Of a stretch of DNA of 64,000 bases, positions 6,445-62,340 are shown in pieces (within the stretch, counting starts at the first letter, position 1; the number at the start of each line of letters is the position of its first letter). The DNA is from an uncultured bacterium (GTDB taxonomy: Bacteria > RBG-13-61-14 > CAYWKU01). The stretch covers positions 83,422-147,421 of the forward strand of contig CAYWKU010000007.1 in the NCBI GenBank assembly GCA_964459325.1. The letters are read 5' to 3'. Both the position numbers and the translations under genes were made by a program. The notes under the pieces were generated by a model. The model had not been told where the DNA came from. It did no database searches and saw only the letters and a list, made by a program, of their open reading frames with translations.

Positions 6445-8949
6445 TTACCGCAGGGAGTAGGGCGGAGCTTCGGGGCCGCCGTAGGCGCCCATGTCGTTGC
6501 GCGAGCCGTCGGGGTCGTCGTACTCGGCCGCCGGGTCGCCCGCATTTATGCAGGGTGAGTCGGGCGCGAGGCGGTAATCTTCGGTCAAATCGACGGCTCC
6601 CGCCCCCCAGTTTTCCACCGTCATGCGGGATGTGGTGGCGGCGGGCAACGCCGGGCTGAACTCCACCGTGTCCCCTCCGGTGATAGCAGTAACGGTTCGG
6701 GCCGTGCCGTCTCCCTCCAGCTCGATAACGTCACCCACCTTATAAAGCGAGGCGTCGTTGACTTTTATAGTGTTATCGGCGCCATCGGCCACAGTTCTAT
6801 CCCAGAAAATGGGAGCGTTGACAAACAACGGTGGCGCATCGATATTGCCTGACCCCCCATATCCCCCGGTGATGTCGCTATAAGCTACCTTGATGTCGCC
6901 GGTTCCCTCGATTTCCGCGGCGGCCGATGAACAGCCTTCCCAAAGGATGGAATTGCGCACCGACACTTCGGAATTCTCGGCGTATACGGCGTTTCCCCTG
7001 TTTTCGGCGAGGTTGCCGTTGAAGGTGCAGTTGGTGACCTCGACTTCACCTTTTATATCCGCCAGAGCCGCGCCTTCCCGCGATACGCCGTTTCCGGCGA
7101 AAACGCTGTTTTCGATTATCGTTCCGCTTCTGTAGCCGTAAATTGCCGAGCCGGATTGATAGGCGGAATTGCCAAGAAAATAACAATTGGATATTTTCAT
7201 TATACCCTTTTCATTGTAAACGGCCCCGCCCAAGCTGGTCCAGGATTGAGCGGATGCGCGGTTATTGAAGAAAGCGCAGTTGGCGACTTCCAGGCGCCTG
7301 CCTCTTACGTTCAACAATCCCGCGCCCTTATTTGCATAACTATAAGATATCCTTGCGTCGCCGTTTTTCACAATGAATCCGTCCAGCCGGGCATTTGAGG
7401 CTCCGTCGACGACGTGAAAGCTCCTGCCTTCCCCGTCGAGGACAGAAGGATACTCGAATGGATTTCCCCTTTCCGAAAGCTTCGTTTCGTTGCCTTCGAA
7501 TCCGCCGTAAACGTACACACCCTTATTCATCGAGACTACCGGCTTATTTTTCACGGGAGTGTAAACTCCCTCGGCAACCCAGATCTCATCGCCGGTAATT
7601 GCGGCGTCCGTCGCAAGCTGTATGCGGGTGAAGGCGTTATTCCAGGATTCGCCCGAGCCGTCTCCGGCCGCGTCATCGTCCACGTACCACACCTTCGAGC
7701 AATCGGTGGAGGATACGAATTCATCCCACCGGGTGTCTTCGGCGAATCGATGCCGGTTATAGTCTTCCATGTAAAAATCCGCCGGTGGAAAGTATATTGA
7801 AAGCCCGTTGGCGTCGGGGATGAAGCTTCTGTTATATAAAACCGCCTCGTCGATAGCCCGCATGGTGCTTTCGGCGCCGGTAAGCATTTGCGGGGGAATA
7901 TCCGAAGAAAGTAGCAGCGAGGCGAAGTGATACAAATCCATCACCGCGACGCTGCCGAAGCGCTGCACGCTGCGCCAGGCATTGCATATTTCGCCCGGAT
8001 AGTCGGTCTTTGCGAGCGATAATTGCCCGGCCATCGAATCCGCGCCCTCGGCCACCCGGTCGACTGCGGCCATATCCAGGGTGGATATCGTTAATATGTC
8101 GGGGGATTTATGATACTCGACGTAAGTATCGGAGATAATTCTCCCCAGCTCGGCCGTGCTCATCAGCGGGTCCAGCGCCAGCGGCCTGAGCCAGTTTTCG
8201 TAAGCCAGTCCCGGCACTTTGGGCAGGGATATGTAACCCTTGGCCTGCTTGGCCACCATGTATTCGGTGTAATCCTTCATGAAGTATACGTTCGCGGCCT
8301 GTTGTTGGGCGCATGCGCTGAATGCCACCAAATCCAGTGAATCCAGGCCGGTGCGGGTCAGGGCGCCATTAATCGCCGCTTCGGTCTCCTGAAAGTTGAG
8401 TATGTCGTAATCGCTGGTTTCGTCCTGCGAAGTGCCCCCCCAACCGAAACCGTGGTCCCAGATTACAAGGAGGTATCTGTTGGCGGGATAACTTATTACC
8501 GACCGGGCGATGAAGTCCTCCAGGGTTTGAGCCTCGGCCATATTAAGCTCACCCGCCTCCCGGAGCAGGGTGGAGTTGATGGTGTCCGGGAAGCCGTCCG
8601 GCTCGACGTAATAAAGCCTGGTTCCGGCCCAGTCGCCATTGGAGGCGTCGTAATCGTCTATCCGGTCGAAAAGGACAATTATGTTGATGTTGGAATCGCT
8701 ACCGACCCTTTCCATGAGGTTGAAGGCGTCTATTGCAAATGGCTCCAGGTCGTTGTCGCCGTCCATGTAGACCATCACGGTCCATTCCTTTTTGTCCGGG
8801 CTTTCGGCCTGATACGGGGTGACACGTTCGCCGTCGGAGGTATTACTCCATAAATTACCCACGGAATCGGAGCCGCACCCGAGGAAAATGAGGGTTTGAA
8901 AAATAAAAAAGAGGCCAAAGGCCCCTTTGATTCTGCCGCAAACGGCCAT
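6445..8949 (-). CDS. Secreted lipoprotein: clostripain-family (peptidase C11-like) N-terminal domain fused to a right-handed beta-helix repeat region
   Basis: Signal peptide with lipobox-like LIFLGC; WTVMVYMDGDNDLE and VIWDHGFGWGG motifs typical of C11/clostripain-like proteins; C-terminal repeated N-x-[ST]/G-N units (NCAFFNNRASA, NCYFLGNSAYQ, NCTFNGNLAENRGNAVYAENS) typical of parallel beta-helix. Confidence 0.6.
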   Translation of the reverse strand: MAVCGRIKGAFGLFFIFQTLIFLGCGSDSVGNLWSNTSDGERVTPYQAESPDKKEWTVMVYMDGDNDLEPFAIDAFNLMERVGSDSNINIIVLFDRIDDYDASNGDWAGTRLYYVEPDGFPDTINSTLLREAGELNMAEAQTLEDFIARSVISYPANRYLLVIWDHGFGWGGTSQDETSDYDILNFQETEAAINGALTRTGLDSLDLVAFSACAQQQAANVYFMKDYTEYMVAKQAKGYISLPKVPGLAYENWLRPLALDPLMSTAELGRIISDTYVEYHKSPDILTISTLDMAAVDRVAEGADSMAGQLSLAKTDYPGEICNAWRSVQRFGSVAVMDLYHFASLLLSSDIPPQMLTGAESTMRAIDEAVLYNRSFIPDANGLSIYFPPADFYMEDYNRHRFAEDTRWDEFVSSTDCSKVWYVDDDAAGDGSGESWNNAFTRIQLATDAAITGDEIWVAEGVYTPVKNKPVVSMNKGVYVYGGFEGNETKLSERGNPFEYPSVLDGEGRSFHVVDGASNARLDGFIVKNGDARISYSYANKGAGLLNVRGRRLEVANCAFFNNRASAQSWTSLGGAVYNEKGIMKISNCYFLGNSAYQSGSAIYGYRSGTIIENSVFAGNGVSREGAALADIKGEVEVTNCTFNGNLAENRGNAVYAENSEVSVRNSILWEGCSSAAAEIEGTGDIKVAYSDITGGYGGSGNIDAPPLFVNAPIFWDRTVADGADNTIKVNDASLYKVGDVIELEGDGTARTVTAITGGDTVEFSPALPAATTSRMTVENWGAGAVDLTEDYRLAPDSPCINAGDPAAEYDDPDGSRNDMGAYGGPEAPPYSLR

Positions 8950-9123
8950 ATTCCTTGCCTACAACCTCCCCACTCTTTAGGCTAATCATTTTATCCTGTA
9001 TTTTCAATGAAATTCCACAAAGTTGAGGAATATTCTACAGTCTTACTACAGCTTGTGTTGACATCCATCGGCCATCGATTACCCTAACCGCGACTTAACA
9101 AATCCGGCAGGGAGAGATTCATA

Positions 9124-10410
9124 ATGGAGTTGGAAAAAGCCATAGAGTTTCCTAAGGATTTCCTCTGGGGCGCCGCCGCCTGCGCTCACCAGGTGGAAGG
9201 CGACAACTTTTACAACGACTGGTGGGAATGGGAGCAGCAACCCGACAGCATCAAAAACGGCGACCGCTCCGGCAAGGCCTGCAACCACTACGAGCTGTTT
9301 GAAACCGACTTCCGCCTGCTCAAAGAAATGGGCGCCAACGCCCACCGGCTGGGCATCGAATGGAGCCGCATCTACCCTGAAGTGGACCGTCTCGACCCCA
9401 AAGCCGTCGACCATTACAAGAAGGTGCTCGAGACAGCGCGGGAAGCGGGCCTGGAGGTATTCGCCACCGCTCACCACTTCACAAGCCCCGCCTGGTTCGC
9501 GAAAAAGAACGGTTTCCTCGTCGAAAAAAACCTCGATTACTTCAAAAGGTACATCGAGCTTATCGCGAAGGAGCTGTCGCCTTACGTCACATACTGGAAC
9601 ACCATCAACGAGCCGGCGGTCTACGCCGTAATGGGCTGGATGGCGGGCGAATTCCCGCCCGGCCACCAGGACGTGGGCGACGCGGTGGACGTGCTCCGAA
9701 ACATCATACTCGCTCACGCAGCCGCATACCAGGGCCTCAAGGAATACTCCCCCAACGACGTAAAGGTGGGCATCGTCAAAAACATACCCCATTTCATACC
9801 CATGGACCCCGACGACCGGATGGACGTGGAAATGGCCGCCAGCCAGGACAAGTTCTTCAACGAATACCACCTGCACGGCATCGAGACCGGCGTGCTGCAA
9901 CTGGGCAAGGAAGAGGAGTTCCCCGAGCTGAAAGGCTCCACCGACTTCTTCGGACTGAACTACTACATGAAAATGATATGCGACAACGACCGCCCCATGG
10001 GCCCGATGACCGCACTGCCCGACGATAAAAAGACCCAGATGGGATGGGCGGTGCACCCGGACGGACTTTACGAGAGCATCATGAGGCTCAAAAAATACGG
10101 CCTGCCCATCTACATCACCGAAAACGGCATCGCCACCGACGACGACGCTTGGAGGGTCGAGTACATTACGCAGCATTTGCAGAAAACAAGGCAGGCCATG
10201 GACGACGGCGCGGACGTGAGGGGCTACTTCTACTGGTCGAACCTGGACAATTTCGAGTGGGCACAAGGATGGGAGCCGCGCTTCGGGCTTATCTCCTTCG
10301 ACCCCGAAACCTTCGAGCGCAAAATCAAGCCTTCCGGCCAATTCTACGGCGAATGCGCTCAAGCGGGCGCGGTAACGCCGGAACTGGTGGAAAAGTACTC
10401 CGAGGGTTAA
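9124..10410 (+). CDS. Glycoside hydrolase family 1 beta-glucosidase
   Basis: GH1 N-terminal signature FLWGAAACAHQVEGD, acid/base NEP motif (TYWNTINEP), nucleophile ITENG motif; 428 aa. Confidence 0.9.
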   Translation: MELEKAIEFPKDFLWGAAACAHQVEGDNFYNDWWEWEQQPDSIKNGDRSGKACNHYELFETDFRLLKEMGANAHRLGIEWSRIYPEVDRLDPKAVDHYKKVLETAREAGLEVFATAHHFTSPAWFAKKNGFLVEKNLDYFKRYIELIAKELSPYVTYWNTINEPAVYAVMGWMAGEFPPGHQDVGDAVDVLRNIILAHAAAYQGLKEYSPNDVKVGIVKNIPHFIPMDPDDRMDVEMAASQDKFFNEYHLHGIETGVLQLGKEEEFPELKGSTDFFGLNYYMKMICDNDRPMGPMTALPDDKKTQMGWAVHPDGLYESIMRLKKYGLPIYITENGIATDDDAWRVEYITQHLQKTRQAMDDGADVRGYFYWSNLDNFEWAQGWEPRFGLISFDPETFERKIKPSGQFYGECAQAGAVTPELVEKYSEG

Positions 10411-17869: not shown

Positions 17870-17999
17870 ATTCCACTCCTCTCGAACTGCACATTTGGAT
17901 AATTAAATTATTTTGCAGCGATGGTAAAAATAACGCAAATGTCAGCTAATAAAGAGGGGCTAAATGGGACTATATGCTTACTTAAAAAAGCCTCGAGAC

Positions 18000-18224
18000 T
18001 TATTTTTTCCATTCCTTTTGAGGAATTTCGGCGTTAACCAGGATGTTGCGCAATGTTCCGAGAGGAAGGTTGCGTCCCTTATGATACGGCACGATAACCT
18101 GTAACCCTGATTGAGAATGTCGCCACTTCCGATGACTTCCTTTTTGCGATATCATTTTAAAACCGTATTTTGACAGCAGAGATTCTACTTCTTTGGCCGT
18201 CATCCTTCTTATGCCGGAGCTCAT
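18000..18224 (-). CDS. hicA: Type II toxin-antitoxin system toxin, HicA family
   Basis: 74 aa; KGSHRKWRHSQSGLQVIVPYHKGRNLPLGTLRNIL matches the HicA fold signature; overlaps the upstream antitoxin gene by 4 nt. Confidence 0.8.
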   Translation of the reverse strand: MSSGIRRMTAKEVESLLSKYGFKMISQKGSHRKWRHSQSGLQVIVPYHKGRNLPLGTLRNILVNAEIPQKEWKK

Positions 18225-18445
18225 CCAATGACGACCTCACACGTAATCGCGTCATCACTTAACTCCAGGGGAGAAGGTTCCAGATATAATGCAATTGCTT
18301 CTTTTATATTTTCCAGAGCCTCCTCTTTGCTTTCTCCCGCCGAAATACATCCCGGCAATTCCGGGCACCATACCGCCCATTCCCCTGTTTCGCTATCCCG
18401 CTCCAATATAACTCGCCATTTCATTCTCCCATTCCTGCCTTTCAT
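18221..18445 (-). CDS. hicB: Type II toxin-antitoxin system antitoxin, HicB family (UPF0150)
   Basis: 74 aa; WAVWCPELPGCISAGESKEEALENIKEAIALYLE is characteristic of HicB/UPF0150; the real start may be the internal Met (MKWRVIL) at about 18424. Confidence 0.75.
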   Translation of the reverse strand: MKGRNGRMKWRVILERDSETGEWAVWCPELPGCISAGESKEEALENIKEAIALYLEPSPLELSDDAITCEVVIG

Positions 18446-18838
18446 AAGTTCTCTTTTTTATGGTAGCCTTTACCTCATTAATTTCAAATGCATCGGCGGA
18501 GCTGTGTCCGATATTCCCGGATAAGGAAGCGGACCGACTTCACACCTTGACCGCTCCCGGGGGTTTCATGAAATATGCTCATCACCAGGGAGGTGATGGC
18601 CGTTTTCGGGTTTTTTGCCCGCCATAAGCCGCCCTGCGGTCAAGATAGGTTACCCTTAACAAGGAATTTTGGAGAGCTGTGTGGTTTTGATTGTATGGCA
18701 ATATCATTGAGACCGGATATTCTTTCTTTATAGTGGGAGTGATATTCCTCGTTACCAAATACTGTTAAGAGGTTTCCACAGGTTATTGCCTTGTGCTATC
18801 TTTTTAATTAATAATTCCATCGAAAGGAGGGTTGATTG

Positions 18839-21858: not shown

Positions 21859-24324
21859 TCATTTGTCCGAAAGCCTGAACACTCCGTCCCAGTCAGAGGG
21901 TGGTGGCTTTTCGAGGTAAAGCCGGCATCTTTCGAGGTAAGTGCGACTGGGACCGTCTTCCGGAATAAAGTTCAAAGCCGCTTCGAAACTGGAGATTGCG
22001 TCGCCCCAGTTCATCTTCCGGTAACTTACCACCCCGTCGTTGTAGGCTTTCAGCATCCGCACCCGCTTGCGGCTCAATGAACCTTTCCGGCCCATAAGCT
22101 CATATACCCTTACCGGCCGCTCCTTCCCCGCCACGGCCACCATGTCCAGGAATCTCACCTCGAAATGGTTTTTCACCTGCTTGTAGGTTTCGCGGGCAAT
22201 CATGATGTAGGTTCCGTACTGCTTGTTGGCGCCTTCGAGCCTGCTGGCCAGGTTCACCTCATCGCCCATGATGGTGTAGTTGAGCCTGCCCTCGCTGCCC
22301 ATGTTTCCCACCACCATGGGGCCGGTATTCAGCCCCATCCGGACGCGCATGTTCTTCACCAGGTCGGGCCGGTTACCTTCGCGTCGCCATTTTTCCCGAA
22401 GCGTACTCAGCGCCGCCTGCATCTCCAGGGCCGCGTTACATGCCCGGACGGCGTGGTCCTCAAAACTCAACGGCGCGCCCCAGAATGCCATGATAGCGTC
22501 CCCTTCGTACTTGTCGATGGTGCCGCCGTATTTTTCTATAACCCTGGCCATTGCCGAAAGGTACTCGTTCAATAACCCGACCAGCTGCCCTGCGTCGCCC
22601 AGCTTTTCGCTAATGGTGCTGAACTTTTCGATATCGCTGAAAAAGGCGGTAAGCTCCTTCTCCACTCCCCCGAGTTCCACCAGGGACGGGTCCTTGATAA
22701 TCTCATCCACCACGGTAGGCGCGAGATACTTGCCGAAAGTGTCCTTTATCCACGTCCTCTCGCGCTCGTGCAGTCTGGCCCTGTTGAACAGGCCGCCCGC
22801 ATAAAGGGCAACCACCGCCGACGCCGGAGCGGCTACGGGAATCCACAGACCGCCCCGAACGAAGCCTGCATACGAGCCGATTGCGACAGTCACCAGCAAC
22901 GCCGCCAGTATGGTTGCTCCCGCCGCCAGGGGCGGTCTCCAGAGCATGAATAAAATCATCGAAACCAGCCCCGCCAGAAAAACAATCCCTCCCTCGATAA
23001 TCTCCAGCCGCCATTTCCTTTGGCCGGGCATCTCAGCCATCTCGAGTAGGTCTTTGATTTTATTATCAAGAAACAGGGATAACGGAACGATAAAGTCCTT
23101 CGTGAGTATGGTGTCCAGGGTGTTGGCGTGAATTTCCAGTCCCGGAGTGTATCCCGTTTTTACGCCTTCCGCGGCGGTATCTTGGGAACTTATTTTCTGG
23201 CCGCCGAACGGGGTGGGGTATTCATCGTGGGCCAGTTGGTGAGTGTTTCCCACGAGCGCGATTTTGCCTTCTACTTTTTCGGGGTCGAAATCCCCCTTCA
23301 ATACGTCTCCAAAGGATATTCTCGGGTAAGTATCCCTCCCGCCGCGGTAGTTGATTAATATGTTTCCGTTTACGAGGGGAATTTTCAGCGCGTCCTCGTC
23401 TCCGCCCATTACAAGCTTCCAGTCGGTGCTTTGAATCAACTCTGGATGGGCCGGGTACCTGACCCTGATTGCGGTCTCCAGCGCCAGCGCTGCCCGCTTG
23501 TTCGGGTCTTCGGCCGAGCGCCCCACTATGGCGGGCATGCGCCTGACCCGAGCGTCCGGGTCTTCGATGATATTGACGGCGCCTTCGCCGAGGAGGGAGC
23601 CGAATCTCAACCCTTTAACGGCAACGTACAACTTCGTGCCCGCCGGTACGCCCTGCACGGTGAGCTCGAGGCTATCTTCATCCGCCGCCACGTCCACGTG
23701 ACCGCCCGAACCTTCTCTTACGGCGCCGGTGTCCTTGATGGGATTGAGTGAGTAAAATACCCGAAATCCGTTAATTACCCGACCGGGGCGCGGCTTCCAT
23801 CGGATGTCAGCCACGCCGTTTTCGTCCACCGTCACAATTTTTGAAGCGTCCACGACAGCCTCTTCGGTGACGCAGGGCACTTCGGTGTCCAGAAACATAT
23901 CCCTCGGCCGAACCCATCCGCCCATAGCGATGAAGCTGGAAAGTATCACATTCCCCGCGCAGGCTATTTCCCGGGCCAGTTTTTCATCTCCGGGCTTGGA
24001 AGTAGCGAAGTCCATGTCGAAAACCACCGCCATTGCGCCCGCTTCGTTGAGGGCTTCGAGAACCCGGGCGTGTTCGGCGCGGGTGATGGAGCCGATGGCC
24101 TTATCGAGGGTTTTGCGGGTGGATTCGTCTATGGTTACAAGCAGGACGTCCGAATGCGGAGCTTTTTGGCCCCGGATTAAAAAGCGCAGGTCGTAAGAAA
24201 GGCGCTCGAGGCCGTCGAAAGCGCCGGCGGCTTCCAGCGCGGTTATCGCCACAACGAGGGCAAGCCCCAGCCACAGGCCGGTCAGCCTGCCGGGAGGCTT
24301 CGAGGATTTTCCGGTATCAGCCAC
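21859..24324 (-). CDS. CHASE2 sensor domain-containing adenylate/guanylate cyclase (class III)
   Basis: N-terminal periplasmic CHASE2-like region, transmembrane helices, then cyclase catalytic domain (FFSDIEKFSTISEKL...YEGDAIMAFWGAP...RMGLNTGPMVVGNMGS...YTIMGDEVNLASRLE), C-terminal TPR-like tail. Confidence 0.8.
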   Translation of the reverse strand: MADTGKSSKPPGRLTGLWLGLALVVAITALEAAGAFDGLERLSYDLRFLIRGQKAPHSDVLLVTIDESTRKTLDKAIGSITRAEHARVLEALNEAGAMAVVFDMDFATSKPGDEKLAREIACAGNVILSSFIAMGGWVRPRDMFLDTEVPCVTEEAVVDASKIVTVDENGVADIRWKPRPGRVINGFRVFYSLNPIKDTGAVREGSGGHVDVAADEDSLELTVQGVPAGTKLYVAVKGLRFGSLLGEGAVNIIEDPDARVRRMPAIVGRSAEDPNKRAALALETAIRVRYPAHPELIQSTDWKLVMGGDEDALKIPLVNGNILINYRGGRDTYPRISFGDVLKGDFDPEKVEGKIALVGNTHQLAHDEYPTPFGGQKISSQDTAAEGVKTGYTPGLEIHANTLDTILTKDFIVPLSLFLDNKIKDLLEMAEMPGQRKWRLEIIEGGIVFLAGLVSMILFMLWRPPLAAGATILAALLVTVAIGSYAGFVRGGLWIPVAAPASAVVALYAGGLFNRARLHERERTWIKDTFGKYLAPTVVDEIIKDPSLVELGGVEKELTAFFSDIEKFSTISEKLGDAGQLVGLLNEYLSAMARVIEKYGGTIDKYEGDAIMAFWGAPLSFEDHAVRACNAALEMQAALSTLREKWRREGNRPDLVKNMRVRMGLNTGPMVVGNMGSEGRLNYTIMGDEVNLASRLEGANKQYGTYIMIARETYKQVKNHFEVRFLDMVAVAGKERPVRVYELMGRKGSLSRKRVRMLKAYNDGVVSYRKMNWGDAISSFEAALNFIPEDGPSRTYLERCRLYLEKPPPSDWDGVFRLSDK

Positions 24325-50827: not shown

Positions 50828-52377
50828 TACATCTTCTCCTTCTTGTAAATATATATGATTCTTCCCTCTTTTTTTACCATGGACGCCGGCTTCCAGCCCG
50901 GAGGCGCGTTGTGGGGATTCAAAAGCGGCGCCATTTGAGGATGAAACGCCCGGATAAGGGTGCTGTCCGCGATTAGGTAATCGACATCCCATCTTCGCGC
51001 GTATTCCAGCACCTTCCGCAGAGGCTCATCCGGCACCGGTACCCTTTCGGCGTTTGCGAAGAACGCCACGTAAGGCTCGCGGGTCATTACCTTCACGCTG
51101 CGACCTTCGGATTGGCGGGCTATGAATTCCGCCGCTGCCCGTTGAGGTTTCACCCATTCGGCGTCCGGGTCGGGGCCGTATTTTACTGAGGCGACGAGGG
51201 GTATCACCACGATTAATAACGCTGCAACCCCCGTTTTCTTCCCGGCCATATCGAAAGCATGGGCGATTCCCCTTCCGGCCACGATAGCTCCGAGCGGCAC
51301 CAGCGGAACGTAGTAGCGGGGGCTGGTGCCCGTCATCGCCTGCAGGCCTACGGCGGGTATCCACATGCTTAAAAGGTAGCCTATGGGTTTCCCTTCCCCG
51401 GCGCCTTTCCTGAGTATGCCGAACAGCCCCAATCCCATGGCGGCGGCAAAAACGGGCGGGAAAATGACGCTCAGGTCTCCGTAAGCGTCATCCAAGCGAG
51501 TGAAGGCGCGCCTTACAACCGCTCCGGCGTTATTACCGAGAAACTCGATTGTACCCATTTCTTCGGCGGCCACCTGAGCTTTCAGCCTGCCGGTTTCCGG
51601 GTCGATTTTACCTTTTTGCCGTTCATGTTTGTCGGGGTTGGATATGATGCGATACATCATCCCCTGCTGGCCGGTAAGCCGCCAGCTTCCCTGCTCAAAT
51701 TTCAGGTAGACAACGTAAGGCGCCGAAAATATCAACACGCCCGCAATGAAGGCCGCCGTTATGATAATCTTTCTTTTGCGTCCTTTAGACGACGCAAACG
51801 CCCATATCGCCGGGATGACGGCTTCGAATATTCCCGCCACCCGGGTCAGGTATGCCAGCCCCAGGGCTGCGCCGGAAAAGCTCCAGCGTCTTGCGGAATT
51901 TTTCTCCAGCGCCGACCACCCGATGAAAACCCCGCCCATCAATAGCGCCGTGTAAAGGCTTTCTGTAAGCGCCAAACCGCCGTAATGGACCATCTGTGGA
52001 TGGAAAGCCACGATAAGGGCCGCGCCCACGGCGGCTGTATCGCCGAAGGTGCGCCTTGCGAGCAATCCCGTCAGGACTATCGCCGCTCCCGCCGCCAGCA
52101 CCGACACCAGGCACCCCGCTATTTCCAGATTGCCGGTAAATATGCCAAAGAAAGAGCTTGCGGCGGCGAAAAGGGGTTGATAGTATCCCGTCTCGCTGCC
52201 CATCGGCACGCTCAGCCCGCCTTCGGCGATACGCCCGGCCAGAAGCAGGTAAAGGCCGCTGTCCGGGTGGTATATTTTCCAGGGGGAAGTAAGGGCGCGT
52301 AAAAAAACGCCCGCCGCCGTTATGGCGGCAAGCTTTCCCGGAAAGGAAAGCAGGAGGCTGTAAGCGCCTCTCCTCAT
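50827..52377 (-). CDS. GT-C fold membrane glycosyltransferase (family 39/83-like, ArnT/PMT-type)
   Basis: About 11 transmembrane helices with a C-terminal soluble domain; adjacent to two GT2 genes. Confidence 0.65.
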   Translation of the reverse strand: MRRGAYSLLLSFPGKLAAITAAGVFLRALTSPWKIYHPDSGLYLLLAGRIAEGGLSVPMGSETGYYQPLFAAASSFFGIFTGNLEIAGCLVSVLAAGAAIVLTGLLARRTFGDTAAVGAALIVAFHPQMVHYGGLALTESLYTALLMGGVFIGWSALEKNSARRWSFSGAALGLAYLTRVAGIFEAVIPAIWAFASSKGRKRKIIITAAFIAGVLIFSAPYVVYLKFEQGSWRLTGQQGMMYRIISNPDKHERQKGKIDPETGRLKAQVAAEEMGTIEFLGNNAGAVVRRAFTRLDDAYGDLSVIFPPVFAAAMGLGLFGILRKGAGEGKPIGYLLSMWIPAVGLQAMTGTSPRYYVPLVPLGAIVAGRGIAHAFDMAGKKTGVAALLIVVIPLVASVKYGPDPDAEWVKPQRAAAEFIARQSEGRSVKVMTREPYVAFFANAERVPVPDEPLRKVLEYARRWDVDYLIADSTLIRAFHPQMAPLLNPHNAPPGWKPASMVKKEGRIIYIYKKEKM

Positions 52378-53303
52378 CCGGTCTCGTCCTCGACCCGCTC
52401 GAACCGCAGCAGGCTTATCTGCTCGGCCACCAGCCCCAGCAGAAACACTATCACGCCGGTCACCAACAGCAGCAGGGCGAGGTTTGTGAACCGGTGCCAG
52501 AGAATGAAGGTGTAAAGGTAATAGAGCACTCCGGCCAGAACGAAAAATATGCTTATGGGAAGAAACACCCTCATCGGCGCAAACAAAGTCGCCACTCTCA
52601 AGAGAATGATGAGAAACCTCAATCCGTCCCGGAAAGGGCGAATCTTGCTCTGACCGATTCGGATGTCGAAAGTTAAAGGTGCGAAGTCCACGCTGTACCC
52701 GGCCCTTATCATGGACAGGGTGATGGTGGTGGGATAGCTGAAGGAGTTGGGCAAAAGATGCAGAAAGCCCCGGGCCACTTTGCGGCGCATGACCCGGAAA
52801 CCGCTGGTCAGGTCATATATACGCCTTCCGGCAATGTAGCCTGCGAAGGAGTTCATCGCCTTGTTGTAGAGTTTCCTGCCGCGCGTCTGCACCGTGGCGT
52901 CGTCGCGGGCGCCGACAATCATGTCGTATCTTTCAATCCGCTCCACCAGTTTGGGTATGGCCTCGGGCGGGTGCTGGCCGTCGCCGTCCATGAGTAACAC
53001 GAACTCCCGGTTAGCATGGCGAATGCCGGTTTTGACCGCCGCTCCGTTGCCTTTATTGTAGGGGTGTTTTATCAAGCGGATGTCGGCGTCTTCGAAAAGG
53101 GATACCGTGCTATCGGAGGAGCCGTCGTCCACCACGATTATCTCGGCCTCCGGCCCGACGACTTCCCTCACCCGCCGGATAACGCTGCCGATGTTTCCCT
53201 CCTCGTTGAAAACGGGCATCACGACGCTGAGCTTCTTATAGTCGAAACGACTTTTTTCGGGGGAGGTTTTTGCTTCGTTCACTTTTTCGTTTTTCTCATC
53301 CAT
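52374..53303 (-). CDS. GT2 polyprenyl-phosphate sugar synthase-like glycosyltransferase
   Basis: Start taken at internal Met (MDEKNEKV...), alternative at ~53219; LSVVMPVFNEE, IIVVDDGSSD, MDGDGQHPP motifs; C-terminal two-helix anchor. Confidence 0.8.
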   Translation of the reverse strand: MDEKNEKVNEAKTSPEKSRFDYKKLSVVMPVFNEEGNIGSVIRRVREVVGPEAEIIVVDDGSSDSTVSLFEDADIRLIKHPYNKGNGAAVKTGIRHANREFVLLMDGDGQHPPEAIPKLVERIERYDMIVGARDDATVQTRGRKLYNKAMNSFAGYIAGRRIYDLTSGFRVMRRKVARGFLHLLPNSFSYPTTITLSMIRAGYSVDFAPLTFDIRIGQSKIRPFRDGLRFLIILLRVATLFAPMRVFLPISIFFVLAGVLYYLYTFILWHRFTNLALLLLVTGVIVFLLGLVAEQISLLRFERVEDETG

Positions 53304-54667
53304 CCGGCCAGCTCCATTCCACGAGAGAGTAGATTGACGGCCCCCCCGGCTCCACCGGCCCGGGCAAGCCTTGAAACGACGTAAGAAGGCCTGGCGTAAA
53401 AACTGAAATGTGCGGCTCTCAGCGCCTTCCTCAACTTTTGCGGCGTCCAATATTCGTCCATCACTGCCGGTCGGGCCAGGTCGGCGTCGAAGGGGTTCAT
53501 GGCGTCGGTCATTCCGAGCCAACCTTTTTTTAGAGCCTCGTCGTAAAGCGGGGTTCCCTCCACCGGCGACAAAACGCTGAACTGGGCCCAAGTAACCCCC
53601 CACCTTGCCGCGAACCGGGCTGTTTCTTTAACGTGCTCCAGTCTTTCACCCGGTATTCCCACCAGAAAGTAAGCCAAAACGTCCATTCCCGCTTGCCGGG
53701 TCATGGTTATAGCCTTCCCGATATCGGACGAGGAAGTGCCCTTTCGCAGGAACCGCAGGCTTTTCTCGTGGATGCTTTCGATGCCGTAGGAAACTATTCG
53801 ACACCCCGCCCGGCTCATCCAATCAAGCATCTCCGGGTACACGTCATCTACACGGGCCTCGCACTTCCATCGGATGTTAAGTCCTTCTTCGATGATGCGT
53901 CGGCAGATTTCAATGACCCGCTCGGCGTCCAGCGTGAAAAGGTCGTCATAAATTATAACGGAACGTACGCCCGAATCGCAAGCAATTTGCCGCAGCTCCT
54001 CCAGCACCCTGTCGGCCGAATGAAGCCTCGGTGCGGAGCCAAAAACGCTTTTGTCGCAGAAGATGCAGGCATGAGGACAACCGCGACTCGTGAAAAGCGT
54101 GGTCGCCGCACCCGGCCCGAGAGGGGGATAAGAATACCGGGAGTGCTCCAGGAGTCCGCGGGCGGGATACGGGAGGCCGTCGAGGTCACCGGAAGGAGAC
54201 GCAGGCGGAGTGTGTCCTTCAGGTGTCACCACTCCGTGTAATGCGAAAAGGTCGCCGTTGTTTTGTAACGTTTCCAGCAGGTTTGCAATAACGCCCTCCC
54301 CTTCGCCCAGGACGACAGCGTCGGCGGGAAAATCGCCTTCGGTTGTGAAGAATTCCGCCCCCCGCATGGTAACATGAGGGCCCCCGATGACGACGGTTTT
54401 CCCCGCGTTTTTCGATATTTGTGCGGCACGGCAGGTTAAGTCCCATGTCGGGGTCATGCCGGTAAGCGCCGCGACCTTCGCGTTTGAAGACCGAACGCGG
54501 TTTTCAAATTCCTTCCAGCTCAGGCCGAGTGCCGGAGCATCGACCAGCTCGGCATCATGGCCCGCCTCCATGCAAACCCCTGCCAGATAAAGCAGTCCAA
54601 GAGGAGGCACAACGAAAGGCGGCTTGCGGCCTTCGCGGGCCGGAGGCACTGCAAAAAGAACTTCCAT
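53279..54667 (-). CDS. B12-binding domain-containing radical SAM enzyme
   Basis: N-terminal B12-binding-like domain (PLGLLYLAG, VVIGGPHVT), radical SAM motif SRGCPHACIFC. Confidence 0.8.
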   Translation of the reverse strand: MEVLFAVPPAREGRKPPFVVPPLGLLYLAGVCMEAGHDAELVDAPALGLSWKEFENRVRSSNAKVAALTGMTPTWDLTCRAAQISKNAGKTVVIGGPHVTMRGAEFFTTEGDFPADAVVLGEGEGVIANLLETLQNNGDLFALHGVVTPEGHTPPASPSGDLDGLPYPARGLLEHSRYSYPPLGPGAATTLFTSRGCPHACIFCDKSVFGSAPRLHSADRVLEELRQIACDSGVRSVIIYDDLFTLDAERVIEICRRIIEEGLNIRWKCEARVDDVYPEMLDWMSRAGCRIVSYGIESIHEKSLRFLRKGTSSSDIGKAITMTRQAGMDVLAYFLVGIPGERLEHVKETARFAARWGVTWAQFSVLSPVEGTPLYDEALKKGWLGMTDAMNPFDADLARPAVMDEYWTPQKLRKALRAAHFSFYARPSYVVSRLARAGGAGGAVNLLSRGMELAGWMRKTKK

Positions 54668-54802
54668 CTCAAGTCAAACATGGTAGAACAGGCGGCGTCC
54701 GTCGGCAATTGAAGAAGGAGGCTCACCCTCTTAATTTATCCCGGCATCTTGTTATTTCTTTCGCAGACATCCCCCAAAATTCATTTGAAAAAAAATACAT
54801 GC

Positions 54803-56317
54803 TCACTCGCAGATTTTTTTAACAAACTCATCATTCAGATATTTGGAGACAATCTTCTTTTGAGCTTCATCCGGAGAGTTCATGGGGTTAATGCAGGTAA
54901 AAAAATCGAGGAGCCGATTTTTATTCAACTTCAAGGCTGAGGAAAACAAGGATTTCACCAAGCCTCTGGAGAAATGTCTGGCGACGTAATTACGACTGAA
55001 AAATGAACCGATTAGCGATGCCATTTCGATGAACCGCCCGGGTCCCAATGTTTCCTTCGCATTTGCCTGCCTTCTGTTTTTATAGGTGTATGCCGACAAA
55101 AATCGCTCGTGATAAAACATATCCTTAAACTGTACGCCCATTTTCTCGAACTTGCTCAGCCCTTTTACTCCGCGCATCGGGATAAATATACTGACCGCAC
55201 AAGAGTCACAAATCTCCGATTTCGGAAGTTTATTTTTGTTTGGCGAGCTATATGCGAGCGGGTATCCGCCGAGGAACTGGGCAGATACGTAGACACCGGC
55301 GTCATAAAGGATTTCGTATACTCTTTTATAATCCAAAGGAAGGGTATTATTCTGCAAGCCTTTTTCCATGGTCTTCAAGGCCTCGGCTTCATCAGTTTCA
55401 TAGCCAATCGCTGCCAGCCTTAACCCCGCGCGCCCCGCCAATTTAAACAACTCCGGGTGTTTTAAAACATTATCCGCCCTGATGAAAGCAAAAAAGTTGA
55501 CGTCTATATTTTCCTGTAATAGCTTTTCGAATATTCTTGATTCAATCTCGGGATTTTCGCCGAAGTTGTCATCACTGATAAGTATTTGAGTTATTCCGAG
55601 TTTTCTCAATCTTGCGATTTCCTCGAACACTCTCTCCGGCGATTTGTATCTTTGTCTCATATACCACATGGTATTTGAAACGCAAAAATTACACGGATGA
55701 GGACATCCGCGGGATGATTCCACAACCCCGGCGTAACCATTCGAGTTCAGATAAGCATTATATAACCTGTAATTAATGAGTTCCCATTTTGCCAAGGGCA
55801 GGCTGTCCAGATTTGCTATCAATTCCCTGTCGGGGTTCACGCGGATTTCGCCGTCTTCTGTAGAATACGTAATCCCTGAAACGTCCGATAAGTCCGTTCC
55901 CCCGTCGAGAGCTTCTATCGTTTCCTTAAAAGTAATATCACCCTCTCTTCTTATAACTATATCCGCTCCTTTGTTTACCCATTCCCTGTCGTAAAATGTG
56001 GAGTGATGGCCTCCGAGAATAATTTTTGTTTCCGGGTTGATTTTCTTTATAATCTTGATTGTAAGCTCGCTGTTTAAGGCGTGAAACGGGGAAACAACGC
56101 TCAAGCACACGACATCCCGCCCTCGGAGCTTTTCCAGGTATTTCTTTTTGGAAATCGGGGACACCCTGGCATCTAATATTTCCATCTCATGGCCGGAAAC
56201 GGAGGCGGCGATTTGAGGGAATGTGGCGGAGCCTACGTGAAAAACCTCGTTAAGAAAGTCGCCCGGATAAGGCCATGTCGAATATAATACCTTTGGATAC
56301 AGAAAGAGTATTTTCAT
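54803..56317 (-). CDS. B12-binding domain-containing radical SAM enzyme (AT-richer codon usage than neighbours)
   Basis: MKILFLYP N-terminus, IILGGHHST, radical SAM motif SRGCPHPCNFC. Confidence 0.8.
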   Translation of the reverse strand: MKILFLYPKVLYSTWPYPGDFLNEVFHVGSATFPQIAASVSGHEMEILDARVSPISKKKYLEKLRGRDVVCLSVVSPFHALNSELTIKIIKKINPETKIILGGHHSTFYDREWVNKGADIVIRREGDITFKETIEALDGGTDLSDVSGITYSTEDGEIRVNPDRELIANLDSLPLAKWELINYRLYNAYLNSNGYAGVVESSRGCPHPCNFCVSNTMWYMRQRYKSPERVFEEIARLRKLGITQILISDDNFGENPEIESRIFEKLLQENIDVNFFAFIRADNVLKHPELFKLAGRAGLRLAAIGYETDEAEALKTMEKGLQNNTLPLDYKRVYEILYDAGVYVSAQFLGGYPLAYSSPNKNKLPKSEICDSCAVSIFIPMRGVKGLSKFEKMGVQFKDMFYHERFLSAYTYKNRRQANAKETLGPGRFIEMASLIGSFFSRNYVARHFSRGLVKSLFSSALKLNKNRLLDFFTCINPMNSPDEAQKKIVSKYLNDEFVKKICE

Positions 56318-56825
56318 ACACGGAACTCCTCAATCGTGTTCGATGAAGCCTCCAAGCACTCATTTTGAACGCGAAAAGTTGCCCATCCGATTGGATTATG
56401 CCGGGCGAGCCGAAAGCGGGTATTCTTTAAAGAACACCTGTTATCCAAAATGGCCGGCAATTGCAATTTTCTCGCGATTCCGAATAAAAACTTTTTTGTA
56501 AACAGAATTGTCAACTTCTTAAATCAAATAGTTCTTCTTGTTTTTTAATGATAACCGGGACATGCCGTGAATTCAACTTTCCGTAAATCGTTTGATTTCT
56601 CTATTCGAGTTCCGCCACAATTGCAGTGATTTTTTCAGTCCCCCGGCAATCAGCCGAAAAAGAAAAAAACAAAATTCCAGCCTATGTCGGTATTTGCCGG
56701 TGAAGTATATGATTGCTATACTGACAACAGTTAAAAGGTTACCACGTGTCTTTCAGACGGAAGAGGTGGAACAAAACTAATGTTTACCAATCCAATAATC
56801 AGATAAGCGAAACAATCCTTTTCTC

Positions 56826-58589
56826 ATGATGCCTCGAAACTTTTCCCGTCTAAGCTCATCCTCTCAGTCAGACAACTATATCACGCTGACATTGCTGACG
56901 TTGATAGGAGCATTCGCGTACTATATTTCCTACGTTCAATACGGTATGATTCAAGTGGACGAGGGTATTTTTCTGGATTTTTCCATCAGGATGATGCGCG
57001 GCAGGGAATGGTTCGTTGACTTTTTTCCACCGTACGGCCCTCTGAACTTCCTCCCACTGAGTGGAATTTTTTCCATTACAGAGCCAAGCTTTTTCTTTTT
57101 CCGATTGTTTTACATATTGTTCAGGCTTTGCGGTTTATGGGCGATGATTTCCGTTTCCAGACGCCTGATGCCCTCCAAATGGGCGGTGTTGGCGATTTTA
57201 CCCGTGATTATAGCTCCCGGCCATCTGTTTAAAAGCGTTTTCCTCCTGATGCCCATGTTGATTTTGTGGCTGGTTTTTCGGGCATGGGAATCGCGCCGGA
57301 TGTTCTGGCTGTTCGTGACCGGATTAGCCGCGGGCATTTCTTTGTACTTCCGCTACGAGATGATTTTTCCACTATCCGTTATCGCGCTCTTGGGACTCGA
57401 GCTAGACCATTTTCGCCGGCATTTTAAACATCATGAGCGCTGGATTCGGCGTTTGATTAGTATCACGGGCGTATTCGCCGGGTTGATGTTACCGGCGTTT
57501 TTTTTCCCCGGGGCAGTCAATGCTCCTAATATTTTGGGGCGTGCTTTCTTTGGAGGAAAAATTCCGGCTCTGGGAGTGCCGTGGCCCGGGTTTCCAACGA
57601 CCCATAGCCCGGACCAAACAGCCACGTTTCTGGTATTGTGGGGGGTGCTTGCAATTTACGCCGGGGTTGGAGCGGATATTTTGCGCACTCTGTTTCGGGC
57701 AAGGAGCTATCCCGCATGGGAACACAGGCTGCTGGTACTCGTGGCAGGGACACTGTTTCTTTACAATGTGCTCTTTCAAAGTAATCTTGGCCACATGCTT
57801 CAAGTCTCGGCCCCCGCCTTTCTGCTGCTGGCGGACATCGGGCGACGGGCCGTTGTATACGGCAAGAACACAATAATGAAAATAGCATCGGGAGCGGTTC
57901 TTGCCGGAATCCTAGCCGCCTTCCTGATTTACGCCGTCTTTTTAACCAACTTGCCCGGAGTCGCCGGCATCGCCCTTCGCCGGATGATGGACACTCCAAT
58001 AACTTCGCCCCTGGGCACGGTATATTTTCACGGGCCGAGAGCCGGCCAAATACAATCAACAATAAATTATATAATGTCTCACACCGAGCCCGATGACCCC
58101 GTGCTGGTAGTGCCCAGGGCCACTCTTATCTCGATAATGTCGGAACGACCGAACCTTAACCCATACGATACCGTAGAAACTTTTCCCACATTTGTATCTG
58201 GTTGGAAAACCGTTAACGATTTTTTTAAAGCCATTACCAAATCGGAGCTTATCGTTTATTTCGAGCGGCCGACGAGATTGGAACGGCCCCGTGCCCCGCA
58301 TCAAAGAATGCGCAGCAACGACTTTATATTCGAGACGATCCTTCGAAACTACACCTTCGAAAAGCGTTTTGGAGAGTATATAATCCTGAGAAAAGGAAAA
58401 GACGAAACCGGCGCCACAAGAGCCTTCATTGACGGCTGGGAGGCGTATAAATACGGTCATTGGGAAAAAGCGGAAGGTTCGTTGAAAAAAGCCGTCGAGG
58501 CCGGGCTTTCCGAGTCCGAAATACGACCTATTCTAAAAAATATCAAACATTTCAAATCATTAGGATTATCTCGTCCCCCGCAATTATGA
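56826..58589 (+). CDS. Polytopic membrane protein, GT-C-like, with C-terminal soluble TPR-like region
   Basis: About 12 transmembrane helices in the first ~400 aa; only plus-strand gene inside the cluster; function unassigned. Confidence 0.45.
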   Translation: MMPRNFSRLSSSSQSDNYITLTLLTLIGAFAYYISYVQYGMIQVDEGIFLDFSIRMMRGREWFVDFFPPYGPLNFLPLSGIFSITEPSFFFFRLFYILFRLCGLWAMISVSRRLMPSKWAVLAILPVIIAPGHLFKSVFLLMPMLILWLVFRAWESRRMFWLFVTGLAAGISLYFRYEMIFPLSVIALLGLELDHFRRHFKHHERWIRRLISITGVFAGLMLPAFFFPGAVNAPNILGRAFFGGKIPALGVPWPGFPTTHSPDQTATFLVLWGVLAIYAGVGADILRTLFRARSYPAWEHRLLVLVAGTLFLYNVLFQSNLGHMLQVSAPAFLLLADIGRRAVVYGKNTIMKIASGAVLAGILAAFLIYAVFLTNLPGVAGIALRRMMDTPITSPLGTVYFHGPRAGQIQSTINYIMSHTEPDDPVLVVPRATLISIMSERPNLNPYDTVETFPTFVSGWKTVNDFFKAITKSELIVYFERPTRLERPRAPHQRMRSNDFIFETILRNYTFEKRFGEYIILRKGKDETGATRAFIDGWEAYKYGHWEKAEGSLKKAVEAGLSESEIRPILKNIKHFKSLGLSRPPQL

Positions 58590-58668
58590 ACAAGAGGCCG
58601 TTGCAGAATTATGATTTTTCGTTTGGGATGTGTTGACCTTCATCGTGCCGAAAAAGAACCCCGAATGG

Positions 58669-58717
58669 ACAAGGGGCTTCAGCCCCTTGAATTTCAAGGG
58701 GTTAAAACCCCTTGTCT
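58669..58717. terminator. Tandem GC-stem hairpins between convergent genes (candidate bidirectional terminator; member of the GGGG-TTAAAA-CCCC hairpin family)
   Basis: GACAAGGGGC-ttca-GCCCCTTG followed by CAAGGGG-ttaaaa-CCCCTTGTC; further hairpins and T-runs up to ~58870. Confidence 0.5.
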
Positions 58718-58901
58718 GGAAAAGACATTCCCGGGGAGCTACAGAAAAAAAGCCTTCTCTCCCCCTGAAGCCTGTTTTGCAACGGTCTCAACAAATAAAA
58801 AACTCCCGGCCGTCTCTTTCGGCCCGCCCTTTTTTCGTGATTTATTTTAGAAAAACAGGCTGCGGCTTTTTGTTCGGGAGGGCGAAATGCCGGGGTTTAT
58901 T

Positions 58902-60269
58902 TCAAGGAAAAGTTCCCCGGCCAACAAAACCCAGTCTATGGGCGTTATAACTCGAAAAATCTATAAGCTTCTTGGTATAATTCAAAACACGATAATCCCT
59001 TTTCGTAGACCAATCGAGTGCTACACTGAGGGGATAATGAAACCGTGTATATCTTTCCGCTTCGATACTGTAACGCTTGAATTCAGAATCCAAATTGTCA
59101 GAACTGATGTTGGGGAGAGGAACGTCGGCGTAAAACGGTATATTAATTATCGAAAACGGATATTTTTTATGAAGTTTAATAATTTCTTTTACCACACCTC
59201 TACTTGGTCTGAGTCCCGAAAAGGCGATAAAAACTGAGATACTAATTTCGTCAACTCGCCGAGCCCACTCGAGAATACGAGCAAACTGACTTAAGTCGAA
59301 ACTCCGCATCCAATCTACCACCGGTTGAAAAATCAAATGAACACTTGTAAAACAAGAATTTATTATTTCCAACTCTTCGACTTTTGGAAGACGGTAAAAC
59401 ATGTATTCAAGGGAAAAATTTCGCTTTTTCGTAAATATCTTATCGACATATCCCATAGAGGGATATTCCAGCGGATCATGGGACACTATGTATACGTATT
59501 GTATTTTAGAATCGGCATGAAATCTATCAAAGTCAGAGGCCACGGCTTCCGGAGACCTGAATACCATCCCCCTTCCCATGAGAGCTTTTTGGTACTTGAA
59601 ATTTCCCATGCATTCGCATTTAAACTGACACCCCCTGAATACATTAAGATATGGATATACGAAATGAGAAAAAATGCTCCGTTGGGACTTGTAAATCCAG
59701 TTTTGCAGTGAAGGGAACCAATCAATGGTGATGAAATCCATGGAATCGAATTCTTCGCCGGATATAGTATATGTGACCTCTCCGGTCATATCGGCGCTGG
59801 TAACATTTGGGGGAAGACCTCCGTCGTCGCCGTCCAAAATACGCCCAACAAGCTCGGGAAACGGGCGGTCGGCATCTCCGATAACCACGTAATCCACTCC
59901 CCACTTGTCCACCAGTTGGCGGTGAAAAATGCCGGCGGTGTACCCGCCGATAATTATGCGGGCCCGGGGATTGATTCGCCTGATGCGCCTTACAAGACGT
60001 CCGGCCGAGGCAAGCGAGTAGAACCAGTGAACATCCATGGCTATTATCTTCGCCCGGGCTATATCGGAATCGGTTACATCAAAATCGAACCTGCCGAGTT
60101 TGGAGCCGGAAACGGCGTTTATGAGGGCAATCGCCCCCATGGGCACCACGCGACGAAACGAATGACCGCCATACGGATGAATGTAAAGTACGTCCAGGTC
60201 CCTTTCGCTCATAAAGACCTTCCCCTCTAAGCTGTTATTCCATTCTTGGAACTCAAGCGGAGGCGACAC
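58902..60269 (-). CDS. Radical SAM-like protein with B12-binding-like N-terminal region and a non-canonical CX3CXC cysteine motif
   Basis: FRGCQFKCECMG sits where B12-radical SAM enzymes carry SRGCxxxCxFC; N-terminal DVLYIHPYGG...IIIGGYTAG resembles a B12-binding domain. Confidence 0.5.
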   Translation of the reverse strand: MSPPLEFQEWNNSLEGKVFMSERDLDVLYIHPYGGHSFRRVVPMGAIALINAVSGSKLGRFDFDVTDSDIARAKIIAMDVHWFYSLASAGRLVRRIRRINPRARIIIGGYTAGIFHRQLVDKWGVDYVVIGDADRPFPELVGRILDGDDGGLPPNVTSADMTGEVTYTISGEEFDSMDFITIDWFPSLQNWIYKSQRSIFSHFVYPYLNVFRGCQFKCECMGNFKYQKALMGRGMVFRSPEAVASDFDRFHADSKIQYVYIVSHDPLEYPSMGYVDKIFTKKRNFSLEYMFYRLPKVEELEIINSCFTSVHLIFQPVVDWMRSFDLSQFARILEWARRVDEISISVFIAFSGLRPSRGVVKEIIKLHKKYPFSIINIPFYADVPLPNISSDNLDSEFKRYSIEAERYTRFHYPLSVALDWSTKRDYRVLNYTKKLIDFSSYNAHRLGFVGRGTFP

Positions 60270-60377
60270 GGCAAAACCTTACCACATATAAAATAGCTCA
60301 CAAAATCAGCCGGTAAATTGCAAGCATGCAGCCGGCCGGTTAACGGGCCACTCGCCGGCCAAAACGCCGTATTCGGT

Positions 60378-61913: not shown

Positions 61914-62340
61914 GGTATCCTCCCGTTCCCGAAACATCTATCTCGTAAATACGAAGCTTAACAATTGAAAATAACAATCCGGCCCGCGAAATAAAAGCGG
62001 ATTTTCCACATTTCCGTCAGCTCTACGTAACTCCGAGCCGCCCCTCCTTGGAGTCCATGCTCCCAAGAAGGTTCCAAAGCCCCATCCGCCCCACTCTTGA
62101 CGCGAGTCGTGACAGTCCACCTGCTTGAAATTATACAATATCCTGCCCCTCAATTCAACTGAAACCCACCGGGGGGCTAACGTTTCGTATTGTGTGTAAA
62201 AGTAAGGACTTTTTATGTACCCTCCGCTTTTTGTTGTCAAATAAAAAGGCATTATTTCATCCCAGAATTTGATATTCTCAGCCCGATTTTGTTATGGCGG
62301 TTTGCATAAATCCGGCTTGGCAAATAGTTTAAATTGTATC

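Follow-up and report, generated by a model that had tools for sequence, protein, structure and literature searches.

A predicted lipoprotein of an uncultured bacterium joins a clostripain-fold domain with an apparently remodelled S1 pocket to a PMP-type beta-helix

Peptidases of MEROPS family C11 (clan CD) are used as reagents, clostripain among them, and have been investigated as effectors that gut and environmental bacteria secrete. We analysed a gene for an 834-residue C11-related protein (the target) in a 64,000-nucleotide stretch of contig CAYWKU010000007.1 from an uncultured bacterium; this whole stretch is the window, to which all positions refer. The gene is a single unbroken reading frame that occupies, with its stop codon, 6445..8949 on the minus strand; there is no in-frame start further upstream, the ATG being the first possible start past the upstream stop. 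It diverges across a 174-bp spacer from a GH1 gene (9124-10410, plus strand) and converges with the gene of an acyl-CoA dehydrogenase, whose end is at 6387. A sequence-only reading of this locus had described a lipoprotein, divergent from the GH1 gene, in which a clostripain-like C11 domain is fused to a pectate-lyase-like beta-helix; reading-frame analysis and profile searches bear out its coordinates, its strand and all three of the elements it described (lipobox, C11 domain and beta-helix). The features of the C11 half are as follows.

7708..8784, minus strand: clostripain-fold domain (MEROPS C11, clan CD), residues 56-414, including the C-terminal subdomain specific to C11
8725..8727, minus strand: codon of Ala75, the equivalent of the S1-pocket residue Asn50 of PmC11, at a position occupied by Asp or Asn in 68 of 70 C11 domains
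8452..8454, minus strand: codon of the catalytic His166, whose His-Gly pair is invariant in 33 of 33 aligned homologs
8311..8313, minus strand: codon of the catalytic Cys213, located by alignment to C11 homologs
8200..8319, minus strand: divergent active-site segment, residues 211-250 (SACAQQQAANVYFMKDYTEYMVAKQAKGYISLPKVPGLAY), with Ser211, Ala219, Lys234, a five-residue insertion (236-240) and a remodelled S1 loop (241-248)

Both sequence and predicted fold support membership of C11. The Pfam profile Peptidase_C11 (PF03415), aligned over positions 1-356 of 359, covers residues 60-412 at 101.9 bits (cutoff 25.8, E = 6.9e-29), clostripain is matched at E = 1.8e-86 by a profile made from homologs, searches of PDB sequences match clostripain and Bacteroidales C11 enzymes, and the structural model of the domain is confident outside the tether and the S1 loop. 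By sequence the target is not an ortholog of clostripain, since it scores 44.7 bits on the clostripain equivalog TIGR02806 of NCBIfam, far below the cutoff of 550, and the match is limited to residues 57-224. His166 (within WDHGFGW) and Cys213 (within AFSAC) align with His176 and Cys231 of clostripain and with His133 and Cys179 of PmC11. The sequence-only reading had named two observations as fatal to it, a missing catalytic dyad and an N-terminal domain classifying outside the C11/clostripain family; both residues of the dyad are present, and the N-terminal domain falls within C11 by its Pfam profile match.

The remainder of the domain is well conserved, with 39 of 41 conserved columns matched outside residues 211-244 in an alignment with 33 homologs. 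Its Pfam score is the lowest of the 12 C11 domains that were scored, the 11 homologs ranging from 117.5 to 218 bits. Activation cleavage after the catalytic His has been mapped to Lys147 in PmC11 and to Arg181 and Arg190 in clostripain (PMC4850288, PMC11296011). The post-His loop of the target (residues 167-197) contains no Lys or Arg, and Arg198 is the only basic residue between His166 and Cys213; such processing sites are also missing from some homologs, and the feature is weakly defining for C11.

The region around the nucleophile is divergent. We compared conserved columns across the 33-homolog alignment and took a census of residues in 70 retrieved C11 domains, mapping PmC11 residues by a chain numbering that reproduces His133, Asp177 and Cys179. 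The target deviates at 11 columns that are truly conserved (a twelfth was flagged but excluded, as it aligned the first residue of a fragment to a start Met), and eight of the 11 lie within residues 211-244 around Cys213: D211S, L214A, M215Q, E219A, A228T, S234K, E235Q and P244K. In the census, position 211 is Asp in 69/70 domains, 219 is Glu in 69/70, 234 is Ser in 67/70 and 75 is Asp or Asn in 68/70, and the target is the sole sequence deviating at all four. Asp177 of PmC11 thus corresponds to Ser211 and Asn50 to Ala75, while the PmC11 loop T204-M205-A206-D207-G208-W209 is replaced by P243-K244-V245-P246-G247-L248, with Pro246 as the partner of Asp207. Net charge over seven pocket-equivalent positions is +1 in the target and ranges from -2 to -6 in 33/33 aligned homologs. 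The per-residue model confidence (predicted local distance difference test, pLDDT) falls to 64 in the ten-residue block 236-245, which holds the insertion and the start of the loop.

Asp177 of PmC11 has been described as conserved throughout C11 and as the main residue of S1, Asn50 and Asp207 being the other likely determinants of specificity (PMC4850288); its equivalent in clostripain is Asp229, and characterized members prefer Arg or Lys at P1 through this Asp two residues before the catalytic Cys (PMC4850288, PMC11296011). The target lacks this family feature and, as judged from the alignment, is alone among the 70 compared C11 domains in having no acidic S1 pocket (Ala75, Ser211, Ala219, Lys234, Gln235 and the rebuilt stretch 236-248). 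Given that the acidic pocket is lost, we infer that the C11 domain is not an Arg/Lys-specific enzyme of the clostripain type. The C11 scaffold can accommodate a non-basic P1 residue, as illustrated by globupain, a C11 member that also cleaves after norleucine, Leu and Asn (PMC12280095).

The census also contained homologs in which the catalytic Cys is replaced by Ser (P0053, P0056, P0058, P0062, P0065, P0051, P0091, P0073 and the second domain of P0190); P0073 additionally carries a His to Pro substitution. These homologs retain the acidic S1 residues, the opposite of the target, and their pattern suggests that non-catalytic or serine variants recur in the clade.

The remaining features of the gene comprise the N-terminal export and anchoring elements, the C-terminal half and a candidate promoter.

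8875..8949, minus strand: signal peptide with lipobox, residues 1-25 (MAVCGRIKGAFGLFFIFQTLIFLGC), from a PROSITE-type lipobox expression and a hydropathy profile; Cys25 is the predicted lipidated residue
8785..8874, minus strand: Ser/Gly/Asp-rich tether, residues 26-55, predicted disordered (the C11 model has pLDDT 47-71 in its first 30 residues)
6850..7698, minus strand: right-handed parallel beta-helix of about 10 rungs, residues 418-700, with an N-terminal cap motif VWYVDDDAAGDGSGESWNNAF...GDEIWVAEGVYTP
7000..7326, minus strand: four consecutive PMP-type rungs, 26-31 residues apart, from Pfam Chlam_PMP and a motif scan
6568..6825, minus strand: small all-beta subdomain, residues 709-794, between helix and C-terminal cap, from alignment A3 and model strands (pLDDT ~70-80)
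6481..6585, minus strand: C-terminal cap motif, residues 789-823 (YRLAPDSPCINAGD...DPDGSRNDMGAY), choice-of-anchor Q-like (NCBIfam NF041518, E = 0.0052, 17 bits against a cutoff of 25)
9032..9061, read 9061->9032, minus strand: sigma-70-like promoter match TCAACA-18-TAGAAT in the spacer common to the divergent GH1 gene; a consensus match only, at 9 of 12 positions

The N-terminus has the charged n-region, hydrophobic h-region and lipobox Cys within the first ~40 residues that are expected of bacterial lipoproteins: R6 and K8 are basic, residues 9-23 form the hydrophobic core, and a PROSITE PS51257-type lipobox match ends at Cys25, which is followed by GSDS, in agreement with the lipobox that the sequence-only reading had claimed. 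Lipoboxes also occur in 16 of 64 C11 homologs and in P0214, a relative that consists of the beta-helix only, and no homology to the tether was found among the database search matches. The window encodes LptF and LptG, from which the host is taken, by gene content, to be diderm, and the target is predicted to be an exported, lipid-anchored, two-module envelope protein of this uncultured bacterium. Within the region coding for the signal peptide, a terminator-like hairpin followed by a T-run (8908-8928, minus strand) is probably a coincidence of Phe/Leu-rich codons; no RNA families were found in the window with Rfam.

The model of the C-terminal half (pLDDT 81; predicted template modelling score 0.80) comprises a helix at ~420-690, the beta subdomain at 709-794 and a poorly predicted tail, and together with the Chlam_PMP repeats it upholds the earlier assignment of a right-handed, pectate-lyase-like parallel beta-helix. 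Chlam_PMP (PF02415) scores 25.8 bits against a cutoff of 20.6 over three stretches, and POMP_repeat of NCBIfam stays under its cutoff (9.7 against 15). The rung motif N[CS]xFxxN starts at residues 557, 588, 614 and 640, and G[GSA][AG][ILVM] at 542, 574, 600 and 626; PMP motifs are described as corresponding to coils of the helix in Chlamydia Pmps (PMC11166332). The subdomain at 709-794 is common only to the closest beta-helix relatives, P0002 and P0214, and the C-terminal cap motif recurs in P0002, P0214 and P0088. Only an 11-residue tail follows the cap motif and no sorting signal is present there, which places the protein outside the definition of choice-of-anchor Q.

Searches of the target with Pfam and NCBIfam returned neither an autotransporter domain nor a match to any polysaccharide lyase (PL) or glycoside hydrolase (GH) family, including the PL1, PL6 and PL9 profiles. 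The conserved columns of the beta-helix unit (alignment A3) are Gly, Asn and hydrophobic ladder positions, that is, structural ones as far as sequence can tell. Because of this structural-only conservation, the lack of PL or GH profile matches and the use of tandem copies in giant proteins described below, the helix most plausibly acts as a non-catalytic stalk or as a binding, adhesin-like module. A 'peptide complex' of Rhombotarget A (9cdu) was considered as a lead for peptide binding by such helices and set aside as uninformative, its peptide being a designed macrocycle.

We aligned the two halves (A3, A4) and modelled them separately, because alignments that mixed them failed and because a singleton fusion carries no interdomain co-evolution signal. 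Full-length (A1) and mixed-fragment (A2) MAFFT alignments were misaligned, the 46% local identity of P0002 dropping to 18% and 31%, respectively. In a word-indexed search of 5.8 billion proteins, the sole full-length match was the target's own record (P0001), and the other 91 matches cover either ~50-415 or ~418-820, never both. When 1.84 billion cluster representatives were scanned exhaustively with HMMER, no second C11 plus beta-helix protein appeared among the best 150 matches, a set whose floor of ~310 bits should be exceeded by any fusion about 30% identical in both halves, more distant fusions remaining conceivable. These best 150 matches are mostly giant proteins of up to 7,663 residues with up to 27 matched stretches of a ~300-residue helix unit. 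Such tandem beta-helix units are found in P0096-P0242 (for example P0127, with 7663 residues and 27 matched stretches), and 54,338 cluster representatives match the target at E <= 0.001. Among GTDB representatives, the sole match is a distant beta-helix protein in a Planctomycetales metagenome-assembled genome (MAG). We found no report of a fusion between clostripain and a beta-helix in the searchable literature.

Several candidates for a similar arrangement were rejected. P0190 and P0212 are tandem C11 duplications and not second fusions. P0003 is not a fusion cut off before its beta-helix, as its gene is complete and has no helix protein alongside. Three proteins resembling the target in length and layout (P0005, P0010 and P0016) have C-terminal halves with no beta-helix family by Pfam.

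The expectation of the sequence-only reading that C11 domains usually stand alone fails in this clade, where 57 of 64 retrieved C11 homologs have at least 120 residues outside C11; their extra domains include PPC, Big_5, PKD, FN3, CarboxypepD_reg and type IX secretion system (T9SS) sorting domains. C11 proteins with several domains are therefore commonplace, and the target stands out for the beta-helix as the partner of C11 and for the loss of the acidic S1 pocket despite an intact dyad. The helix, judged by its sequence relatives, is a mobile module: it occurs alone in P0214, a 578-residue lipoprotein with a complete helix unit at 47% identity and the same C-terminal cap; behind other N-terminal domains in P0002, where the unit follows RCC1-type repeats and is 46-49% identical to that of the target; or in up to 27 tandem copies.

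The neighbourhood of the gene encodes an HdrD-like Fe-S protein, an acyl-CoA dehydrogenase, GH1, an SDR epimerase, a zinc-ribbon protein, LptG, LptF and TldD, and the host is probably anaerobic, by gene content. The closest named relatives of TldD, ~60% identical, are in MAGs from Nitrospirae and Deltaproteobacteria. Closer relatives are two metagenomic contigs (L003, 1-16454; L004, 95-9274) whose TldD proteins are 84-85% identical and whose nucleotide identity to the window is 77-87%. Both remain colinear with the window between 28789 and 11194, a breakpoint at the final base of the epimerase gene; past it L004 carries PilZ and acetyl-CoA synthetase genes with no counterpart anywhere in the 64-kb window. 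The GH1, target, acyl-CoA dehydrogenase and HdrD-like genes all lie beyond the breakpoint, and since colinearity stops there, the target, 2.2 kb past it, is in a variable region.

Other features of the window were noted in passing. Between a cyclase gene and TldD, positions ~17999-18489 are 81% identical in nucleotide sequence to a pair of HicB-like antitoxin and HicA toxin genes of L004 (2110-2534). Over about 30 kb (22000-54000) the GC skew stays negative throughout, and the minus strand carries almost all long reading frames; this region includes a GT2 glycosyltransferase (52374-53603) and an 821-residue protein (21859-24324) whose ortholog in L003 has CHASE2 and guanylate-cyclase domains. 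A low-GC block at 54000-62000 (GC 0.45-0.49, against ~0.57 elsewhere) contains three B12-binding radical SAM genes (54803-56317; 58902-60269, in which only the B12 domain was detected; and 60378-61937) and a PMT_2-type glycosyltransferase (56826-58589), and may be a horizontally acquired modification cluster.

Taking these observations together, we lean, with slightly more confidence than doubt, towards a single genuine gene for a lipid-anchored, two-module protein whose C11 domain is a cysteine endopeptidase that has shifted to a non-basic P1 preference and whose helix is a stalk or binding module. The signal peptide and lipobox would export the protein, Cys25 would be lipidated and anchor it at the cell envelope, a flexible tether of ~30 residues would join the anchor to the C11 head, and a six-residue junction would join the head to the helix. 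The head, which keeps its nucleophile and general base, would most likely cleave with a non-basic P1 preference, and the helix could position the envelope-held protease on its substrate. The suggestion of the sequence-only reading, a surface-anchored protease or adhesin-like protein, is a reasonable one as far as sequence goes. We propose more tentatively the fuller account, in which a natural C11 peptidase has had its S1 pocket converted from acidic to neutral or slightly basic, would accept P1 residues outside Arg and Lys, and is carried on a PMP-type helix and a lipid anchor as a lineage-specific fusion.

The most serious rival, which we hold to be rather unlikely, is that the C11 domain is no longer catalytic and forms a head with a structural or binding role on the helix stalk, His166 and Cys213 being residual. 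Four almost universal positions in the active-site area have changed, and two of these, Glu219 (69/70) and Ser234 (67/70), are not obviously specificity residues; the S1 loop has its insertion and low model confidence, the Pfam score is the lowest among the compared domains, the basic autoprocessing site is missing, and the family already includes probable non-catalytic members (Cys to Ser, and in one case His to Pro). Those probable dead homologs, however, lose the nucleophile, whereas the target keeps both His166-Gly167 and Cys213, and its 39 matched columns of 41 outside residues 211-244 together with the confident fold suggest targeted remodelling of the pocket over general decay. That a non-basic P1 residue is compatible with the C11 fold is shown by globupain (PMC12280095). 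Because the dyad is kept, the changes are concentrated in the pocket and globupain cleaves after norleucine, Leu and Asn, a protease of changed specificity appears more likely than a dead scaffold.

The helix might instead be a polysaccharide lyase or hydrolase in a bifunctional enzyme that degrades both glycan and protein, perhaps together with the adjacent GH1. That the divergent neighbour is a GH1 beta-glucosidase speaks for this proposal, which we regard as improbable: the profile searches detected no PL or GH family, the conserved columns of the unit form no polar cluster, the repeats are PMP-type, and up to 27 tandem units in giant proteins are typical of structural or adhesive repeats. 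The GH1 N-terminus (MELEKAIEFPKDFLWGAAA) has no visible signal peptide, so that enzyme is presumably cytoplasmic, and GH1 is missing beside the conserved flank in a close relative. More improbable still is an artefact in which a chimeric assembly or a sequencing error fused two separate genes, one for a C11 lipoprotein and the other for a beta-helix protein. Such an origin would explain why the fusion is a singleton, with no homolog having both halves and with its only identical record on the same 153.5-kb contig. The reading frame is nonetheless continuous, and the join falls exactly where a C11 end typical of its family (RWDEFVSS) gives way to an equally typical helix start (VWYVDD), with a linker of six residues, a position that a random in-frame chimera would rarely hit. 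A chimeric join is also argued against because GC content and GC at third codon positions are alike in the two halves (0.557/0.702 and 0.570/0.667) and within the range of neighbouring genes; no discontinuity in repeats or composition was seen.

Other observations weigh against our preferred reading of an active, envelope-anchored protease on a stalk. The protein is a single sequence from a single assembly (the identical record P0001 occurs once in NCBI), and both the fusion and the substitutions depend on that one record. The geometry and electrostatics of the pocket are deduced from alignment alone; Asp74, beside Ala75, or acidic residues of the 176-182 loop might partly restore a negative pocket, and so many changes at near-invariant positions such as Glu219 and Ser234 could equally signal lost catalysis. 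The helix has lyases and hydrolases as its best fold matches, which leaves some room for a catalytic role, the lipobox is atypical in having Phe at -3 and Leu at -2, the Shine-Dalgarno-like AGGA lies just 2 nt from the ATG, and the neighbouring genes, unrelated metabolic and housekeeping ones, lend no functional support.

If the fuller account is correct, the target would be the first C11 member without the Asp described as conserved throughout the family. With its dyad kept and its whole acidic pocket replaced, it offers a natural test of how specificity is encoded in clan CD and, if active, might provide a new cleavage specificity. The fusion further shows that a widespread PMP-type unit, otherwise found alone or in giant tandem arrays, can be recruited to carry an enzyme fold. 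A check of the dyad on its own would overstate the case for a conventional protease of the clostripain type. The practical weight of the case is limited, as it concerns one environmental sequence from an uncultured organism in a neighbourhood that gives no support.

Given these features, we compared the target with known systems. Clostripain of Hathewaya histolytica (PDB 9cip), PmC11 (3uws/4yec), thetapain and iotapain (6n9j/6nag) and the distasonis zymogen (6mzo) are exported and have their dyad in the same position as the target. The target differs from them in having Ser211 in place of clostripain D229 and PmC11 D177 and Ala75 in place of PmC11 Asn50, in a T204-D207 loop rebuilt with an insertion, in the missing post-His Lys/Arg processing site, and in being fused to a beta-helix and, by prediction, lipid-anchored. 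Its closest C11 relative, the metagenomic lipoprotein P0003 (44% identity), shares the lipobox, the short C11 architecture and the addition of a non-catalytic domain, in its case PKD. P0003 has no beta-helix, however, and unlike the target it retains the full set of acidic pocket residues (DDSEEEW, net charge -5); its Pfam C11 score is 211.6 bits. The adjacent downstream gene (L002, 1874-3793) encodes a papain-family C1 peptidase (Peptidase_C1) with lectin-like and BACON domains, which suggests, from domain content, a small locus of exported cysteine peptidases. As judged by sequence comparison, the multidomain exported C11 protein is thus a known theme, and what is new in the target is its unmatched partner domain and uniquely remodelled specificity pocket.

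The C-terminal half resembles the PMP-type units of Chlamydia Pmps and of P0214, P0002, P0006 and P0027, which share its GGA(I/L/V)-like and FxxN motifs spaced 26-31 residues apart, its N-terminal cap (WYVD…G.G.SW..AF…GDEIWVAEG.Y.P) and its C-terminal cap (DSPC.D.G…D.DG..R…DMGAY), the units of P0002 and P0214 being 46-49% identical to it. The chlamydial Pmps are autotransporters with a C-terminal beta-barrel, whereas the target has no barrel, ends 11 residues past its cap and bears a single PMP-type unit on a protease-fold domain with a lipid anchor.

Protease heads combined with adhesin or beta-helix stalk modules at the envelope are known from the gingipains (C25, clan CD) and from the SPATE and IgA1-protease autotransporters. 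Gingipain and IgA1-protease structures were among the weaker fold matches of the target. Both the protease families and the modes of secretion and anchoring differ, the gingipains being C25 enzymes with a T9SS C-terminal domain and the SPATE and IgA1 proteases S6 serine proteases with a type V barrel, and beyond the clan-level fold there is no sequence relationship to either the helix or the C11 domain. The resemblance in layout is one of analogy and implies no membership; if our reading holds, the target could be regarded as the lipoprotein counterpart, in layout, of the gingipains and autotransporter proteases.

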